A DNA stretch of 64,000 nucleotides from Candidatus Eiseniibacteriota bacterium. Its GTDB lineage: Bacteria; Eisenbacteria; RBG-16-71-46. The stretch is from NCBI GenBank assembly GCA_041483195.1, contig JBGPFC010000002.1, positions 32,001 to 96,000 of the forward strand, in the 5' to 3' direction. A program made the translations under genes and the position numbers. This document shows, piece by piece, positions 6,495-41,096 of the stretch; within the stretch, counting starts at the first letter, position 1, and every line of letters starts with the position of its first letter. Below the pieces are notes generated by a model. It did no database searches. It was given only the letters and a program-made list of their open reading frames with translations, and was not told the origin of the DNA.

Positions 6495-6576
6495 GCGAGA
6501 GTGGCGGAACTGGCAGACGCGCTGGATTTAGGATCCAGTGGGGAAACTCGTGGGGGTTCAAATCCCCCCTCTCGCA
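6495..6576 (+). tRNA. tRNA-Leu(TAG)
   Basis: Acceptor GCGAGAG/CTCTCGC, anticodon arm CTGGA-TTTAGGA-TCCAG, long variable arm, GGTTCAAATCC T-loop; CCA not encoded. Confidence 0.95.
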
Positions 6577-32789: not shown

Positions 32790-34061
<1,272 letters not shown>

Positions 34062-34200
34062 GCCACGCGCGGCGCTGCGTTGCCCCGTCCGCGGGCTTCG
34101 GCATAGACTCCGCGCGCCGCGAGCGGGGCGGAGGGCGGTCGCGGTTCGCCGCGCTCGCGGTGAGCGCCGTCCCGACGACCTGCACGTACGTGCAGTCCGT

Positions 34201-34276
34201 GACCCGTTAGCTCAGTCGGTAGAGCACCTGCCTTTTAAGCAGGGTGTCGCTGGTTCGATCCCAGCACGGGTCACCA
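34201..34276 (+). tRNA. tRNA-Lys(TTT)
   Basis: Acceptor GACCCGT/ACGGGTC, anticodon arm CCTGC-CTTTTAA-GCAGG, GGTTCGATCCC T-loop, encoded CCA. Confidence 0.96.
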
Positions 34277-34513
34277 ACTTGGTACGGTACCTCGGTGCGG
34301 ATCGCCTTTGGGGCGGCCGCTCCCCGCGATCGCCGCGGGCTCCCGGGAGGGGGGGGCGATCGAAGGAATTTCGGGTCCCGTTAATTTTCTGTAAACCCGT
34401 TCCGGCGGGCTCCGCATCTAGACAACCCGTCAGTTGGCGCCCCCCCCGAAGGTCGCCGACCTCACGATGGCCGCGTGATGCGAGGCCGCGCACGTGGTTC
34501 TCCCTGGCCAGCG

Positions 34514-34792
34514 ATGGAGCAACGGGAAGTGGACTGTATTGGAGTCCGGGACAAGCTCTCGGAGTTTCTGGACCGCGATCTCGTCGACGCGATTTGTCGC
34601 GAGATCGAAGAACATCTCGAGCGATGCCGCGATTGCAGGGTCGAAGTCGACACGGTGAGGAAGACCATCACGCTCTATCAGAACGTCGGTGACGTCGAGG
34701 TCCCGATGCAGGTGACGGCGGCGCTCGAGAGCGCGCTGTCGCGCGAGTACCAGCGCGCAACTTCCGCGACACCCGAAGGGGCCGCCGATTGA
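34514..34792 (+). CDS. Small zf-HC2 (ZAS-type) anti-sigma-factor-like protein
   Basis: C..V...LSEFLD.......IEEHLERCRDC (HxxxCxxC) motif. Confidence 0.85.
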   Translation: MEQREVDCIGVRDKLSEFLDRDLVDAICREIEEHLERCRDCRVEVDTVRKTITLYQNVGDVEVPMQVTAALESALSREYQRATSATPEGAAD

Positions 34793-34818
34793 CAGGCGCT
34801 CCGCGCGCCGCGTAGATT
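34789..34818 (+). promoter_or_regulatory. Putative sigma70 promoter for ychF
   Basis: TTGACA-N18-TAGATT. Confidence 0.5.
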
Positions 34819-34893
34819 TCCCCAATCGAGACCGCACACCGCCCGCGGGAAGTCGCCCTCGCGGGCGGTTCTGTTCCCTCCACCGGAGCACTC

Positions 34894-35949
34894 ATGAAGC
34901 TCGTCGGCATCCTCGGACTTCCCGGGTCCGGCAAGACCACGTTGTTCGAGATTCTCATGCAGGGCGCCGGCGCCGCGCATGCCGGCGGCGGCGCGCGCGA
35001 CCAGGTCGGCGTCGTCAAGGTTCCCGATCCGCGGATCGACCGGCTCTCGGCGCTCTACCATCCGAAGAAGACCACGTTCGCCAACATCCAGTTCGTGGAC
35101 AGCGCGGCCGCGGGGCAGGGCAGCGCCCGCGCCGCCGCGAAGGGCCCCGATCTGTTCTCGGCCGTGCGCAACTGCGACGCGCTGATGGCGGTCGTGCGTG
35201 ACTTCGAGAACCCGGCGGTGCCGGCGGAAGGCGGGGTCGATCCGGTCCGCGATCTCCGCAATCTCGAGGCCGAGCTCATGCTCAACGATCTCGCGATCGC
35301 GGAGACCCGTCTCGAGCGGATCGAAAAGGAATTGCGCATCGGCAAGAAGCAGGGGGAGCGCGAGCACGCGCTGCTCCAGCGCTGCCGCGGGATGCTCGAA
35401 GCGGAGCGTCCGCTGCGCGGCGAGTCCTTCGACGCCGAGGAGACGAAGCTGCTGCGGGGATTCCAGCTTCTTTCGCTGAAACCACTGCTGGTGGTGTACA
35501 ACCAGGATGAGCATTCCCGTCGCGTGCCGGCCGCGCCCGGCCCCGGCGCGCTGGCGGTCGCGTTGCGGGCGCACCTGGAGCGCGAGATCGTGAACCTCGA
35601 GGCCGGGGAGCGCGAAGCGTTCCGTCGCGAGATGGGGATCGACGAGGACGGGCTCTCCCTTCTCATCCGCGCCTGCTACGAGGTGCTGGGCCTGATCGCG
35701 TTCTTCACAGTGGGACCCGATGAGGTGCGGGCATGGACCATCCACCGCGGAGAGCGGGCGGTGGACGCGGCCGGAGAGATTCACAGCGACCTCGCCCGCG
35801 GTTTCATACGCGCGGAGGTGATCGGCTGGGAGCAGTTGCTCGAAGCGGGCACCCAGGCGAAGGCGCGCGAAAAGGCGTGGCTCCGACTCGAGGGCCGCGA
35901 ATACGTCGTGCAGGACGGGGAGTGTCTCGAGATTCGCTTCAACAAGTGA
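34894..35949 (+). CDS. ychF: YchF/Ola1-family P-loop NTPase (divergent)
   Basis: VKVPDPRID, FFTVGPDEVRAW, AGEIHSDLARGFIRAEV, RLEGREYVVQDGE..RFN (TGS/DUF933 domain). Confidence 0.88.
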   Translation: MKLVGILGLPGSGKTTLFEILMQGAGAAHAGGGARDQVGVVKVPDPRIDRLSALYHPKKTTFANIQFVDSAAAGQGSARAAAKGPDLFSAVRNCDALMAVVRDFENPAVPAEGGVDPVRDLRNLEAELMLNDLAIAETRLERIEKELRIGKKQGEREHALLQRCRGMLEAERPLRGESFDAEETKLLRGFQLLSLKPLLVVYNQDEHSRRVPAAPGPGALAVALRAHLEREIVNLEAGEREAFRREMGIDEDGLSLLIRACYEVLGLIAFFTVGPDEVRAWTIHRGERAVDAAGEIHSDLARGFIRAEVIGWEQLLEAGTQAKAREKAWLRLEGREYVVQDGECLEIRFNK

Positions 35950-35963
35950 TGAGGGAGGCGCCG

Positions 35964-36587
35964 ATGACGCGCGCATCGCGCGAGGCCCGGCGCGCGGCGC
36001 CGCCGCTCGCGGGGCGGATGCTCGCGCTCTCGGTGCTGGCGCTCGCCGCGCTGCGGGTGCCGGTCGCGAGCGCGGCGACGCCGCCGAAGCTGGCCCAGCT
36101 CCAGGGGCATCTCGCGTTCGGATACGCGCGATTGCTGACCCGGGACGCGCCGGCCGGCTCGATCGCGGTCGACGGCGGGATCGATGTTCCGCTCGATGCC
36201 GATTGGAGCGCCGGGGTCACGCTCGGGTACGCGTTGCTCGGCGGCCGGACCGTCGAGCGCGGCAGCCTGATCGCCAGCCTGGACTACAGCGTGTTCGAAG
36301 CGATCGCGTTCGCGCACGTTCGGCCCTCGGGTCTCGGACCCATCGGCCGCCTCTCGTTCGGCCCCGGTTTCTTCTCGACCCGCGCGACGCTCTCGACGTC
36401 GGGCGGAGGCGCGTTGTTCAGCGACCTCGCGCGCGAGGAATTCGTCCCCGGATTCGCGATCGACGCGACGCTGATGAAGCACAAGCCATCGCCGGTGCGG
36501 GTGGGGTTGGAGCTCGGCACCCGCGTCGCGTTCCTGAGAGAGGAAGTCTGGACCCTCAGCGGGGTGCGGATCGCGTTCCACTATTAG
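35964..36587 (+). CDS. Small outer-membrane beta-barrel hypothetical protein
   Basis: GGAGG RBS, signal peptide, amphipathic strands, C-terminal aromatic (FHY). Confidence 0.65.
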   Translation: MTRASREARRAAPPLAGRMLALSVLALAALRVPVASAATPPKLAQLQGHLAFGYARLLTRDAPAGSIAVDGGIDVPLDADWSAGVTLGYALLGGRTVERGSLIASLDYSVFEAIAFAHVRPSGLGPIGRLSFGPGFFSTRATLSTSGGGALFSDLAREEFVPGFAIDATLMKHKPSPVRVGLELGTRVAFLREEVWTLSGVRIAFHY

Positions 36588-36624
36588 CCGGCCGCCGCTC
36601 CACTCCCGGGTGAACCATTCTTCG

Positions 36625-36653
36625 TTGACTCGATCCGCCTCCCTTTCTAGAAT
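36625..36653 (+). promoter_or_regulatory. Near-consensus sigma70 promoter of an intergenic small transcript
   Basis: TTGACT-N17-TAGAAT. Confidence 0.75.
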
Positions 36654-36681
36654 TCGCGCCACGCGGAAAGGAGGTGGTCCA

Positions 36682-36726
36682 TTGACTAGCACCCAGTTGT
36701 GGATCGCGGAGGTGGCTGTCCGCTAG
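36682..36726 (+). CDS. Candidate 14-aa peptide MTSTQLWIAEVAVR
   Basis: TTG start 7 nt after GGAGG; TAG stop at 36724-36726. Confidence 0.4.
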   Translation: MTSTQLWIAEVAVR

Positions 36727-36778
36727 ACGGCCCACCGACGGCGGTTGGGTCGTCCGCGAATCCCAACAGCCTACCGGT

Positions 36779-36816
36779 TACGCGGGGGGCGAGCGGTTGC
36801 CCCCCGCGTGCTTTTT
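36779..36816 (+). terminator. Intrinsic terminator
   Basis: TACGCGGGGGGCGA-GCGG-TTGCCCCCCGCGTG stem-loop followed by CTTTTT. Confidence 0.85.
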
Positions 36817-36891
36817 CCGCCGGGGGCGCGAGCGCCCGCGGCCGCCGATCCGCCGGGCGTGAAATCGCCGGCGCCCCGCCCGGCGGCGTTT

Positions 36892-36921
36892 TTGACACCC
36901 GCGGAGGGCGGCGGGTATCCT
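36892..36921 (+). promoter_or_regulatory. Sigma70 promoter for the FMN riboswitch / rib operon
   Basis: TTGACA-N18-TATCCT immediately upstream of the aptamer. Confidence 0.65.
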
Positions 36922-36933
36922 CGCCGGCTCAAG

Positions 36934-37097
36934 CTCCTTCGGGGCGGGGTGCGAAGTCCCCACCGGCGGTAAAGCCCGCGAGCGGGAGCGGACGGAATCC
37001 GGCGTCAGCCGGAATCGCGCGGCATGCCGCGCCCACCGCTCCTGCTGATCCGGTGAAACTCCGGGGCCGACCGTGACAGTCGGGATGGAAGAAGGAG
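36934..37097 (+). promoter_or_regulatory. FMN riboswitch (RFN element)
   Basis: P1 CTCCTTC/GAAGGAG; conserved GGGGCGGGGTG..CCCACCGGCGGT..AGCCCGCGA..GATCCGGTGAAACTCCGG.GCCGAC.GT.ACAGTC.GGATGG; directly upstream of ribD. Confidence 0.96.
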
Positions 37098-37150
37098 GGG
37101 ATCGCGCATGCCGGCCGGCAGGCGCGAAGCTCGCGCGTTGCGCACGTTCC

Positions 37151-37180
37151 GCCCCGTGGTGCAGAGACCACGGGGTTTCT
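37151..37180 (+). terminator. Riboswitch-controlled intrinsic terminator
   Basis: GCCCCGTGGT-GCAGAG-ACCACGGGGT followed by TTCT; its 5' arm (TTCCGCCCCG) can alternatively pair with aptamer CGGGGCGGGG as an antiterminator. Confidence 0.75.
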
Positions 37181-37191
37181 CGTTAAGGGCC

Positions 37192-38307
37192 ATGGCGACC
37201 AAACGACAGCAGCCTGGATTGAGTTTCATGCAGCGCGCGCTGCGCATCGCGGAGCGCGGTCGCGGGCGCACTCGTCCAAACCCGATCGTCGGGGCGGTCG
37301 TGGTGCGTGGCGGCCGTGTGGTGGGGGAAGGCTGGCATCGCGCGCTCGGCAGCGACCACGCCGAGGTCGAGGCGCTGCGCGCGGCCGGCGCGCGCGCACG
37401 CGGGGCGACCCTGTACGTCACGCTCGAGCCCTGCGCGCACACCGGGCGCACTCCGCCATGCGTGGACGCGCTGGTGCGCGCGGGCATCCGGCGCTGCGTC
37501 GTCGCGCTGCGCGATCCGCACGCGATCGTGAACGGCCGCGGCCTCCGGGCGCTGCGCCGCGCGGGGGTGGACGTCGAGCTGGGGCTCTGCGCGGCGGAGG
37601 CCCGCGACGGGCTCGAAGGTTACTGGCTCGCGCACACGCGCGGCCGCCCGCGGGTGACGTGGAAGGTGGCGGCGACGCTCGACGGCAGGATCGCGGATGC
37701 GCGCCGGCGTTCGCGCTGGATCACGGGTCCGGCGGCGCGCGCGCACGGCCATCGGATGCGCGCGGCAGCTGACGCGGTGCTGATCGGCGCCGGGACGGCG
37801 CGCGCCGACGATCCGCGACTCACCACGCGGCTCGGCCGCCCGGCGCCCCAACCGCTGCGCGTGCTGTGCGACACGCGTCTCGCGAGCCCATTCGGCCTGC
37901 GGCTGTTCGGGCCATCGCTCGCGCACGGCACGGTGGTGGCGTGCGGACCGCGCGCGCCGCGTGCCCGCGAGCGCGCGCTCGAATCGCGGGGCGTCAGGGT
38001 GTGGCGCCTGCCGCTGCGTGACGGCCGGGTCTCGCCGCGCGCGCTCGCGCGCCGGCTGGTCGCCGCGGGCTGCCACGAGGTGCTGCTCGAGGGGGGCGCG
38101 ACGCTCGGCACGGCATGGCTGCGCGCGGGGCTGGTCGATCGCGTCGCGCTGTTCACCGCGCCGCGGGTGCTGGGGGCCGAGGGGCTCGCGTGGTGTGGCG
38201 CGCTCGCGCGCGGCGGGCTGGCGAGCGCGCCGCGCGGCCGGCTGGTCGAGCACCGCCGATTCGGCGAGGATGGGTTCACCATGGTCGCGCTCGAAAGGAA
38301 TGCGTGA
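37192..38307 (+). CDS. ribD: Bifunctional riboflavin deaminase/reductase
   Basis: [44 protein letters not shown]; the start could alternatively be ATG 37228. Confidence 0.95.
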
Positions 38308-38918
38308 TGTTCACGGGACTGGTCGAGGAGATCGGCGCGGTCGAGCGCATCGAGGAGCGACCCGGCGGCCGGCGCTTCTGGATCGGCGCGCGTCGAGTGC
38401 TCGAGGACACCCGCACCGGCGACAGCGTGGCGGTGTCCGGATGCTGCCTCACGGCGGTCGCGGTCGAGGCCGCGTGCTTCGCGGTCGAGGCGGTGCCGGA
38501 GACGCTGCGGCGCACGACGCTCGGCGCGTGGCGCGAGGGCGAGCGCGTCAACCTGGAGCGGGCGCTGCGCCTCGACCAGCGGCTGGGCGGACACCTGGTG
38601 CAGGGGCACGTCGACGCGGTCGGCGAAGTGCGCGCGGTGGTGCCGGAGGGGGACGGGCGGCGGCTCACGCTCGCGCTCCCCGCGGGCATCGCGCGCTACG
38701 TCGCGGAGAAGGGCTCGCTCGCGGTGGACGGCGTGAGCCTCACGGTCGCCGCTCGCGACGGCGCGGGCTGCGAGATCGCGCTGATTCCCCACACGCTGGC
38801 CGTGACCATCGCCGGCGACTACGCACCGGGACGCCGCGTTCATCTCGAGGTCGATCTGATCGCGCGCTACATCGCGCGGCTGATCGACGAGGCCGGCGTC
38901 GCGGGGGGCCCGCGATGA
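38307..38918 (+). CDS. ribE: Riboflavin synthase alpha chain
   Basis: [37 protein letters not shown]. Confidence 0.96.
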
Positions 38919-40192
38919 CCCGACCGGTCCGGGTCGCCGCCAGCGGGCGCGGCACGGCGCGTGCGCGGTCCGGCCTCACGCCTTTCATCACGGTCAAGGA
39001 TGCGATCCGCCGCATCCGCGCCGGCAAGATGATCGTGGTGGTGGACGACGCGCAGCGCGAGAACGAGGGCGACCTGGTGTTCGCGGCCGAGAAGGCGACT
39101 CCCGCGATGGTGAATTTCGCGGTGAAGCACGGCCGCGGCATCCTGTGCGCGCCGATGACCCCCGCGATCGCCGACCGGCTGGGCCTCAAGCTCATGGTGC
39201 CGCACAACACGGCGAAGTTCGGAACGCCATTCACCGAATCGGTGGATGCCGCGAAGGGCACGACCACCGGCACGTCGGCGTTCGACCGCGCCCGCACGCT
39301 GCGCGCGCTCGCCGATCCACGGGCGAGGGCCCAGGATTTCGTGCGCCCCGGCCACATCTTCCCGCTGCGCGCGGTGCCGGGCGGCGCCCTGCGCAGGGCC
39401 GGCCATACCGAGGCCGCCCCCGACCTGTGCTCGCTCGCGGGCCTCCAGCCGGTGGGAGCGGTGTGCGAGATCCTCGCTGAGAGCGGGCGCATGGCGCGGC
39501 TCCCCGAGCTCGAGCGGTTCGCCCGCGAGCACCGGCTCGGCATCCTCACCATCCGCGATCTCATCGCGCACCGTCGCAAGAGCGAGAACCTCGTGCAACG
39601 CGTGGTCTCGGTCCCGCTGCCCACCAACGCCGGGCTGTTCCAGCTCCACCTCTACCAGTGCGTGCTCGAGGGCGATCACCACGTCGCGCTGGTCAAGGGA
39701 CGCTTGCGGGGGCGCGGCCCGGTGCTGGTCCGCGTGCACTCGCAGTGCCTGACCGGCGACGTGTTCGGCTCCGAACGCTGCGACTGCGGGGCGCAGATGC
39801 ACGCCGCGCTGAAGGCGATCGCCGCGCGCGGACGCGGCGTGTTCCTCTACCTGCGACAGGAAGGGCGCGGGATCGGACTCGCGAACAAGCTCAAGGCCTA
39901 TGCGCTTCAGGACCGCGGCCTCGATACGGTCGAGGCCAACGTCCAGCTCGGGTTCCCCGCCGACCTGCGCGACTACGGCATCGGCGCGCAGATCCTGGTG
40001 GATCTCGGCGTGCGCGAGATCGAGCTGCTCACCAACAATCCGCGCAAGATCGTGGGCCTCGAGGCCTACGGCCTCACCATCCGCAAGCGCGTGCCGATCC
40101 ACACCGCGGCCAACCGCCACAACCGGCGCTATCTCGCCACCAAGCGCGACAAGCTCGGTCACCTCCTCGACCTCAAGCTGGGGGAGACGTGA
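38915..40192 (+). CDS. ribBA: Bifunctional DHBP synthase / GTP cyclohydrolase II
   Basis: [60 protein letters not shown]. Confidence 0.96.
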
Positions 40193-40665
40193 TGGGCGCC
40201 GAGATCAAGCCGGGGCACGACGCCGGCGGCCACCGTTACTGCCTGGTGGCCGCGCGGTACAACGAGAGCCACGTGCGGCGCATGGTGGACGCCGCGCTCG
40301 AAGTGCTCGCGCAGCGGGGCGCGGCGCCCGACGACCTCGAGGTGTGGTGGGTGCCTGGATCCTTCGAGCTGCCGCTCGCCTGCGCGTGGGCCGCCGCCAC
40401 CTCACGCTTCGACGCGGTGCTCGCGTTCGGCGTGCTGATCCGCGGCGAGACCGAGCACTTCCGCCTGGTCGCAGAGGCCGCGACCCAGGGGTTGATGCGG
40501 GTGGCGCTCGACGCCTCGGTGCCGGTGCTGAACGGCGTGCTCGCGACCCTCGACGCCGCGCAGGCGGCTGCCCGCACCGGCGGTGACCTGGGCAATCGCG
40601 GGGCCGAGGTCGCGCTCGCGGCGATCCAGATGGCGCAGCTGCGCCGCGCGCGCGGGAAGCGATGA
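40192..40665 (+). CDS. ribH: 6,7-dimethyl-8-ribityllumazine synthase
   Basis: VPGSFELP, GVLIRGETEHF, VPVLNGVL, GNRG. Confidence 0.93.
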   Translation: MGAEIKPGHDAGGHRYCLVAARYNESHVRRMVDAALEVLAQRGAAPDDLEVWWVPGSFELPLACAWAAATSRFDAVLAFGVLIRGETEHFRLVAEAATQGLMRVALDASVPVLNGVLATLDAAQAAARTGGDLGNRGAEVALAAIQMAQLRRARGKR

Positions 40666-41096
40666 CGCACCGGCTCGAGACCGCGCGGCGGCGCGCGCGC
40701 GAGGTCGCGTTCCGCGTGGTCTACCAGGCCGACGTGGCCGGCGAGACCTGCGCGCAGGCGTGGACGCTGCGGCAGGAGGACGAGCATCTGAGCGCGGACG
40801 GGCGCGCGCTGGTCGAGGACGTGCTGCGAACGCTCGAATCGTCCCGCGCGGAAATCGACGGCGCCCTGCGCGAGGCGGCCGAGCACTGGCCGCTCGAGCG
40901 CATCGCCGCCACCGATCGCGCGGTCCTGCGCGCGGCGGTGGCCGAGCTCATGGGGCGCTCCGGCACGCCGGCGCGCGTCGTGCTCGACGAGGCCATCGAG
41001 ATCGCCAGGCGCTTCGGCTCCGAGGAATCGGGCCGGTTCGTGAACGGCGTGCTCGACCGGATCGCGAAGCGGCTCCGGCCCGCGGAATTCGAATGA
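40662..41096 (+). CDS. nusB: Transcription antitermination factor NusB
   Basis: RRRARE, WPLERIAATDRAVLR, LDEAIEIARRFG..SGRFVNGVLD. Confidence 0.95.
   Translation: MTHRLETARRRAREVAFRVVYQADVAGETCAQAWTLRQEDEHLSADGRALVEDVLRTLESSRAEIDGALREAAEHWPLERIAATDRAVLRAAVAELMGRSGTPARVVLDEAIEIARRFGSEESGRFVNGVLDRIAKRLRPAEFE

Follow-up and report, generated by a model that had tools for sequence, protein, structure and literature searches.

Background

The closest described systems to the element considered here are the rre small mRNAs, which carry a Shine-Dalgarno (SD) complement of 16-17 nt and 14-18 codons on an RNA of ~165 nt (PMC5711450). In the Bradyrhizobiaceae, rreB is a 165-nt mRNA with a 14-codon open reading frame (ORF) that begins with GTG and a 17-nt complement of the 3' end of 16S ribosomal RNA (rRNA) (Hahn et al., PMC5711450). 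Its relative rreR, with 18 codons, is conserved in the Rhodobacterales and has analogues in Caulobacterales, Rhizobiales and Rhodospirillales, and the peptides RreB and RreR are each conserved inside their own clade (PMC5711450). The full-length rreB RNA co-sediments with the 30S subunit and is found mainly in that fraction, it is weakly translated, it gains stability on loss of its start codon, and its overproduction left growth unaffected; in the authors' judgement, ribosomes greatly outnumber the RNA. Synthetic RreB and RreR peptides were unstructured, putative overproduction of RreB likewise had no effect on growth, and the authors, who reported rre genes from alpha-proteobacteria only, called their function elusive (PMC5711450). 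In this study we analyse a window of 64,000 nt from Candidatus Eiseniibacteriota bacterium (assembly GCA_041483195.1, contig JBGPFC010000002.1, positions 32,001 to 96,000 of the forward strand) and describe an element at 36625-36816 on its + strand that is a distant member of this already described kind, which we refer to as the rre / Ms_IGR-5 / CC2171 type.

The last two names are those of Rfam families. Ms_IGR-5 (RF02471) is filed there as a non-coding small RNA (sRNA) of Actinobacteria; in M. smegmatis and M. abscessus, ribosome-protected reads map to it (PMC4974804), in S. avermitilis it is transcribed as a separate unit (PMC8780764), and in S. lividans it was validated by RNA-seq. CC2171 (RF01867) is a Caulobacter sRNA whose expression has been shown by Northern blot in Methylorubrum. 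The available text of the papers that name Ms_IGR-5 mentions neither an ORF nor complementarity to 16S rRNA, Ms_IGR-5 did not come up in a text search of PMC4633059, and text searches of PMC5711450 turned up neither Actinobacteria nor Rfam nor CC2171, nor any discussion of a second or internal SD. When the literature was searched for later studies of rreB, or for a connection with Actinobacteria, it yielded the original paper and three papers citing it, all from research on Sinorhizobium trpL, and nothing else.

Results and Discussion

The element and its likeness to described RNAs

The element is laid out as follows, where SD1 and SD2 are its two SD sequences and P0, PA, PB and P3 its helices:

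36625..36653, + strand: sigma-70-type promoter TTGACT-17-TAGAAT, matching the consensus at 10/12 positions
36661..36816, + strand: predicted transcript of ~155 nt, its start inferred from promoter spacing and the onset of conservation (ACGCGG), its 3' end from the terminator
36662..36666, + strand: 5' strand of P0 (CGCGG), partner 36704-36708, from anchored counts and as helix 1 of alignments A2 and A3
36665..36681, + strand: SD1 (GGAAAGGAGGTGGTCCA), a 17-nt complement of the 16S 3' end with two G-U pairs
36682..36726, + strand: small ORF (sORF) of 14 codons, from TTG at 36682 to TAG at 36724-36726, reading MTSTQLWIAEVAVR
36701..36708, + strand: GGAUCGCG, holding the 3' strands of PA (36701-36704) and P0 (36704-36708)
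36708..36718, + strand: SD2 (GGAGGUGG) and the 5' strand of PB (GGUGGCUG, 36711-36718)
36727..36755, + strand: P3, a variable hairpin directly 3' of the stop codon, from the minimum-free-energy fold
36756..36775, + strand: conserved 3' motif GCGAAUCCCAA-CAGCCUACC, from comparison of relatives
36767..36775, + strand: 3' strand of PB (CAG-C-CUACC), an intramolecular anti-SD mimic, from covariation with SD2 and as helix 3 of alignments A2 and A3
36779..36816, + strand: intrinsic terminator, a 14-bp stem at 36779-36810 followed by a T run

Much of this had been recognised in a preliminary description of the window, and the promoter, the 17-nt complement with its two G-U pairs, the 14-codon TTG ORF, the second SD inside the ORF just before the stop (GGAGGTGG as DNA, 36708-36715) and the strong terminator all proved to lie where it had placed them. 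A promoter scan of 2.5 kb returned two promoter-like sites against 0.0 expected from shuffles, and five relatives (L002-L006) keep a TTGAC(A)-17-TAnnnT promoter at an unchanged distance to ACGCGG. Relatives also carry G+C-rich stems with T runs, and a hairpin of varying sequence and length at the position of P3. The fold z-score of the element is -3.62 on the plus strand and -2.57 on the minus strand.

The tails of 16S rRNA in six relatives end in ...GGCUGGAUCACCUCCUUUCU, one of them showing the variant CCUCCCUUCU, and since they read in this way, SD1 forms 17 pairs with them, two of which are G-U, as the preliminary description had it. The TTG start codon abuts the last base of SD1 that is complementary to 16S rRNA, with no gap. 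The match GGAAAGGAGGTGGTCCA is unique in the window even when three or fewer mismatches are allowed, and any match was found in only 6/100 shuffles. Genome-wide, the exact 13-mer AAGGAGGTGRTCC has one copy in 4.17 Mb; allowing one mismatch gives 13 sites, and the reversed control gives 14.

As far as the published account of rreB and rreR goes, the window element resembles them in being a stand-alone RNA of ~155-165 nt with an RpoD-type promoter and a terminator, in carrying a complement to 16S rRNA of 16-17 nt that runs up to a non-ATG start, in having only a few 5' nucleotides of the SD predicted to be single-stranded, and in a genomic context that is not conserved outside the clade. Its sORF has 14 codons, as in rreB, compared with 18 in rreR, and starts with TTG, compared with GTG in rreB. 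A 16S complement of at least 16 nt, promoter and terminator signals of its own and a non-ATG sORF of 14-18 codons, the traits that characterise rre genes, are thus all found at this locus, and the preliminary suggestion that the element is of an undescribed kind does not hold, given that rre mRNAs have been published and that related sRNAs are present in Rfam as Ms_IGR-5 and CC2171.

The Ms_IGR-5 model aligns to the window element over its full length (model 1-184), with AAGGAGGUGGUCC, GAGGUGGCUGyCCGCUAG and CGAAUyCC..CAG.CACC in common, and in a search of the window genome this locus was its sole match, at 27.2 bits. Among 20 loci compared with the same model, seven reach its gathering score (six actinomycetes at 62-176 bits and an Acidobacteria metagenome-assembled genome (MAG) at 47.7) and 13 lie below it, the range of 62-176 bits covering members from Mycobacterium, Micromonospora, Streptomyces and Kitasatospora. 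Our covariance model R1 links the two groups: actinobacterial members score 84-108 bits, those positive for Ms_IGR-5 84-100, and the window has a single match (36656-36778, plus strand, 82 bits, E 5e-17). The 5' end of CC2171, GAAAGGAGGUGAUCCAGUG, is the same extended SD and start codon as in the window element; this 5' region and the terminator align between the two, whereas the centre of the model does not. A Rhodobacterales locus (L047, from Seohaeicola) combines an 18-codon GTG ORF ending in REVAV-stop with SD1, SD2 and a stop at +15, and matches CC2171 over its full length at 40.9 bits, below the cut-off of 75.

Conservation and distribution

The preliminary description had proposed a search of related genomes, and homologues were found in them. 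BLAST returned homologues in 13/41 relatives, and an alignment of 12 of these 13 (A1; L011 was omitted as near-identical to L010) shows the invariant blocks ACGCGGAAAGGAGGTGRTCCAKTG, GGATCGCGGAGGTGGC and AATCCCAAC(A/T)GCCYACCG, with variable stretches between them. We then scanned for a pattern made up of SD1, a start-like triplet and GAGGTGGC, in which the reading frame is not fixed. The exact pattern occurs in 93/206 genomes of the window's phylum, compared with 0 for the reversed control, and R1 matches 101/151 genomes of the phylum, or 78/118 at a completeness of at least 90%. There is one R1 match per genome, the sole exception being a genome with two matches at contig ends. The conservation of the element is far beyond chance.

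Beyond the phylum, a pattern scan that took one genome per species gave at least 120 loci. Among the matches listed, most are from Actinomycetota (Streptomyces, Kitasatospora, Micromonospora, Mycobacterium, Nocardioides, Acidimicrobiia and Solirubrobacteraceae), and Acidobacteriota, Planctomycetota, Krumholzibacteriia, Eisenbacteria, Sumerlaeota, Syntrophobacter, Leptospira, Seohaeicola and a MAG labelled Rickettsiales are also represented. R1 matches 98/100 sources. A candidate from Verrucomicrobiia (L102) was rejected as a false positive that sits within a long ORF, and a blastn search of the element against a plasmid collection gave no match. In the control genomes, the CC2171 model has a sub-threshold match in Thermus thermophilus, which may be an rre-like element in Deinococcota.

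A conserved fold that masks the second SD

In A1, RNAalifold pairs GUGGUCC of SD1 with GGAUCGC, and GGUGGCUG of SD2 with CAG-C-CYACC; within the latter helix, PB, a compensatory exchange of U-A to A-U splits the 12 relatives 6 versus 6. We extended the comparison with helix tests anchored on SD1 and SD2, which do not depend on an alignment, and with two larger alignments. A2 was made with MAFFT from 77 of 93 non-redundant elements, those of 110-170 nt, taken from the 127/162 elements that have a relaxed PB-like match, and A3 (98 sequences) was drawn likewise and fitted to model R1. One locus, L007/L158 in genome G026, counts as a single row in A1-A3, and statements on family f3 rest also on L008-L013. 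The shuffle controls were applied to the sequences of kin, which are not independent, and therefore overstate significance.

P0 pairs the 5 nt directly upstream of SD1 with the nucleotides directly upstream of SD2, and its three central pairs are formed in 78-81% of 133 elements with 5 pair types, compared with a mean of 45-54% and a maximum of 66% in shuffles. PA (RUCC x GGAY) is mostly invariant; in the window, the partner of 36701-36704 is GUCC at 36677-36680, inside SD1. Its one R:Y pair is formed in 89%, against 79% when shuffled, and in A3 a change of G to A in SD1 is accompanied by a change of C to U in the partner (GC 62, GU 14 and AU 13 of 98). For PB, the complement of an element's own three nucleotides after GGUGGC, followed by G(N)YYACC, is found downstream in 84/131 elements; with the triplet of another element the mean is 11 and the maximum 21. 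A one-base bulge shifts two PB pairs out of register in ~40% of rows.

Over the helices together, 78.0% of the cells of A2 are paired, compared with 70.4% in shuffled and 33-49% in slid controls, with a covariation score of 0.226 versus 0.114 when shuffled. The corresponding values for A3 are 82.3%, 73.4% and 34-49%, with a score of 0.264 versus 0.118, and cells changed on both sides number 152 versus 48 in shuffles. P0, PA and PB are the helices common to the sequences of A3, including the actinobacterial members. The two hairpins drawn in the preliminary description can both form in this sequence, but they compete with PB and P3, and where it had paired a segment of the SD2 region with one just after the stop, the comparison of relatives instead pairs that region with the 3' strand of PB. 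A covarying hairpin of the N-terminal codons that would extend PA was also considered and set aside as marginal, with a mean of 0.67 extra consecutive pairs against 0.45 in the control (maximum 0.62) and none in 104/152 elements.

Partition-function folding of 109 elements gives a median unpaired probability of 0.5-1.0 for the 5' half of SD1 (A-AAGGAG), 0.01-0.26 for its 3' half (GUGRUCC) and 0.00-0.08 for SD2 (GGUGGCNN...). From this pattern, the 5' half of SD1 is displayed, and its 3' half and SD2 are masked. The predicted exposure of the 5' half matches the seed idea put forward for the rre mRNAs, as described in PMC5711450.

The small ORF and the register of its stop

Although the pattern leaves the reading frame free, in 132/133 elements the frame opened by the first ATG, GTG or TTG downstream of SD1 runs into a stop 12-18 nt beyond the first G of GAGGUGG. 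The stop lies at +15 in 119 of the 133 and at +14, in another frame, in 8; the ORF spans 11-20 codons, starting with ATG (57), TTG (49) or GTG (27) and ending with TAG (98), TAA (20) or TGA (15). TAG in the first relatives had suggested a sensing mechanism specific to release factor 1 (RF1), an idea that was dropped because TAA and TGA also occur. The stretch from SD1 to PA is AU-rich, with a median G+C of 0.39 compared with 0.69 for the loci, and lower in 152/152 elements.

Across phyla the ORFs have only the residues EVA in common, which are SD2 in translation, and the final two positions are variable. Family f3 and the type of L089 (8/133) use a different frame for these conserved nucleotides, giving ..DRGGGSS, and keep the stop all the same. 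Residue 3 is serine in 76/134 distinct ORFs, encoded by AGT or AGC in 46 and by TCT in 26. The 15 nt from the start of SD2 to the stop fall within the range of 11-18 nt that separates the SD1 register from the start codon; with the stop codon in the A site, SD2 would therefore lie at an SD-like distance from the P site.

Genomic context

Downstream of the element lies a second terminator-like hairpin (36865-36886, a 7-bp stem followed by a T run), whose T run leads into the -35 TTGACA of the promoter of a riboflavin (rib) operon:

36892-36921: promoter-like site of the rib operon, separate from the promoter of the element
36931-37100: flavin mononucleotide (FMN) riboswitch, 88.8 bits
37108-38307: ribD, with deaminase and RibD_C domains
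38115-38918: gene with a lumazine-binding domain, riboflavin synthase type

As listed, the ORF of ribD overlaps that of the lumazine-binding gene by ~190 nt, which makes it probable that the latter starts further downstream. The preliminary description had taken the element for a unit that stands alone next to a rib operon with its own promoter, a view borne out by the separate promoter-like site and the riboswitch. Just upstream of the element, an ORF of 284 aa (35733-36587) has no Pfam match at E 1e-5; relatives with ribD downstream of the element also keep this ORF upstream. The window further holds two transfer RNA genes, at 34201-34273 (72.8 bits) and 6495-6576 (58.7 bits).

The element of the window is of a GGAUCGCGG...CAGCCUACC subtype that adjoins ribD, and within the phylum RibD is found downstream of the element solely in the GGAUCGCGG subtype. 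RibD tblastn matches occur in 18/43 loci searched, some of these loci being duplicates of one place. Two genomes of the same genus (G001, locus L185, and G002, locus L186) carry another subtype, GUUCGGUGG...GGCGUCC...GCGYCAYC (..GUUCGGUGGAGGUGGCGUCC..GCGYCAYC), at a different locus, with neither RibD nor a relative of the window's upstream gene within ~2.5 kb. A genome carries a single element, which belongs to either of the two subtypes, and a like alternation is seen in other genera of the family (g2 and g16), which suggests replacement rather than duplication.

Across phyla, a Pfam survey of 140 of 155 flanking ORFs, from 70 of 80 loci, revealed no conserved neighbour gene among these 140 ORFs. 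Several actinomycete loci (L053, L054, L064, L069, L073 and others) have a FUR-family regulator upstream and a gene for a THAP4-like haem-binding protein (nitrobindin-type) downstream, and further actinomycete loci have a GCV_T-domain gene nearby. The gene for ribosomal protein L31 lies directly downstream in four loci of Acidobacteriota of the Bryobacterales type (L038, L039, L049 and L062), and in Seohaeicola (L047) the downstream gene encodes an RF-1-domain protein of ~170 aa, ArfB-like by size; these ribosome-related neighbours may be due to chance.

Proposed mechanism and rival explanations

We consider it likely, with a probability of about 0.7, that the element is a stand-alone small mRNA, widespread and present in single copy, that docks on the ribosome, a local version of the rre/Ms_IGR-5/CC2171 type, and that it is remodelled by its own translation. 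In the free RNA, the 5' half of SD1 (AAAGGAG) would be exposed in an internal loop between P0 and PA, its 3' half would be held in PA, and the whole of SD2 would be held in PB by an anti-SD mimic, the 3' CCACC motif. When a 30S subunit is free, its 16S tail could seed on the exposed half and zip through PA into a duplex of 13-17 bp, and as this duplex would end right at the start codon, docking should be tight and initiation slow. A ribosome translating the AU-rich ORF of 11-20 codons would open P0 and PB and halt at the stop fixed 15 nt after the start of SD2, where the SD-like distance between SD2 and the P site would allow the terminating ribosome to hold SD2, and the opened RNA might then be turned over. 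Conservation, the single copy, the three helices, the in-frame stop at its fixed place and the pattern of accessibility come from the present analysis. Binding to 30S, weak translation, instability that depends on the start codon, ribosome footprints and independent transcripts were demonstrated by others in homologues; for this lineage itself, we infer the order of zipping, the capture of SD2 at termination and the decay after translation.

Two familiar systems offer points of comparison. At the frameshift site of prfB, the gene for release factor 2 (RF2), an SD-like sequence inside the ORF, a short set distance before the stop, is engaged by the anti-SD of the translating ribosome. The window element shares the SD-like sequence inside an ORF before its stop but has no downstream frame to shift into, and since all three stop codons are used in the family, the arrangement is not specific to one release factor. 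6S RNA, likewise small and widely conserved, mimics the nucleic-acid ligand of a central machine; it targets RNA polymerase, has no ORF and has no sequence or structural relation to the window element, so that the likeness is an analogy in the way of working.

Several points weigh against the reading as a ribosome-docking small mRNA. Both transcript ends, 36661 and 36816, are predictions from sequence signals, a search for RNA sequencing runs over 33000-41000 of the window having listed none, and the 16S tail was taken from six relatives, the assembly of the window genome being without a 16S gene. The pattern-defined set of elements holds SD1, the start-like triplet and GAGGTGGC by construction, and since the elements of A2 and A3 were chosen by a PB-like match, three PB pairs are favoured by that selection. 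The likeness to rreB was set by the published description and covers the length, the 16S complement, the sORF and the promoter and terminator. The preliminary description had named a match to a described Rfam family as a point against its reading, and although such a family is matched in substance, none reaches its cut-off: the window element scores 27.2 bits with Ms_IGR-5 (E 1e-4, cut-off 45) and 22.7 bits with CC2171 (cut-off 75). At E 0.001, R1 misses the Rhodobacterales locus L047 and the Leptospira locus L048, so that the link to rreR rests on the common motifs, the 18-codon GTG ORF and the sub-threshold CC2171 match. Finally, serine at residue 3 from two codon families hints, in the sequences compared, at a constraint at the level of the peptide or the codons.

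Beyond the docking small mRNA, we hold it possible, and tentatively so, that the family is an ancient riboregulator of many phyla that is gated by the ribosome, in which docking of a free 30S subunit on the exposed half of SD1 and one round of translation would switch the RNA from closed to open, giving the cell a reading of its spare initiation capacity. While closed, the RNA would keep both SDs masked and its anti-SD-like 3' motif locked in PB; once open, it would release that motif or be exposed to decay, the stop of the translation round being kept in register with SD2. The literature searched holds no description of a ribosome-sensing RNA conserved from Actinomycetota to alpha-proteobacteria.

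A micropeptide gene, in which the peptide is the active product and the RNA features tune its synthesis, would account for the frame kept in 132/133 elements, though at lengths of 11-20 codons, and for the serine at residue 3 in 76/134 ORFs, which, coming from two codon families, looks like amino-acid selection; the conservation of RreB and RreR in their own clades (PMC5711450) and the ribosome footprints on Ms_IGR-5 (PMC4974804) point the same way. We nevertheless regard it as unlikely, because the EVA shared across phyla is the translation of SD2, the last two residues vary freely, and the 8/133 elements of the f3 and L089 type read the same nucleotides in another frame with the stop kept. 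In the published account, moreover, the synthetic peptides were unstructured, putative overproduction of RreB left growth unchanged, and rreB translation was weak (PMC5711450), the last of which also speaks against the very highly translated micropeptide that the preliminary description had offered as an option. A trans-acting sRNA, whose C-rich 3' motif (GAAUCC...CAGYCACC) would be a seed for G-rich ribosome-binding sites of mRNAs, masked by SD2 until the sORF is translated, strikes us as slightly less probable again. C-rich seeds that mask SD sites are a known mode of sRNA action. The 3' motif is kept from Actinomycetota to Eisenbacteria, is complementary to GGUG(G/A) and is predicted to be locked in PB in the free RNA, and since PB lies within the translated stretch, a ribosome would release it; PB alone, however, accounts for the covariation of the motif with SD2, and the accessible literature on rreB, Ms_IGR-5 and CC2171 gives no pointer to mRNA targets.

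The remaining two alternatives are contradicted by the evidence. The preliminary description had seen in the element a self-contained RNA that engages 30S subunits, which fits the co-sedimentation of rreB with 30S (PMC5711450), and had suggested a sponge. A stoichiometric sponge that lowers global translation would be in keeping with a 17-nt anti-SD duplex, which should be very stable, and with the presence of rreB mainly in the 30S fraction, but overproduction of rreB had no effect on growth, ribosomes are judged by the authors to outnumber the RNA by far (PMC5711450), and a sponge would need neither a stop at a fixed distance and in frame nor a masked SD2, so that we think it very improbable. 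Least credible of all is a cis-acting leader or attenuator of the downstream riboflavin operon. The GGAUCGCGG subtype does lie just upstream of the FMN riboswitch and ribD, and RibD is found in 18/43 loci, some of them duplicates; yet a strong terminator of the element's own, a second hairpin, a separate promoter and a complete FMN riboswitch intervene, relatives of the same genus with the other subtype have no RibD within ~2.5 kb, the neighbours differ across 70 loci from other phyla with none universal, and no alternative pairing with the terminator is seen. Neither a competing antiterminator nor a downstream gene that depends on read-through, as in leader-peptide attenuators, was found at the element.

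Conclusions

The element of the window is an ordinary member of its family, and it is the family itself that is a standing puzzle: a single-copy RNA of ~150 nt with the longest known natural complement of the anti-SD, whose members have been detected by experiment in Bradyrhizobium, Caulobacter, Methylorubrum, mycobacteria and Streptomyces. Relative to the literature searched, what is new is that one layout is common to the alpha-proteobacterial rre genes and the actinobacterial Ms_IGR-5 and is also present in Eisenbacteria, Acidobacteriota, Planctomycetota, Leptospira and others, that the RNA masks a second SD with an anti-SD mimic of its own, and that the ORF ends at a fixed distance from this second SD. 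The layout, the masked SD2 and the register of the stop translate into concrete mutants that are testable in cultured organisms.

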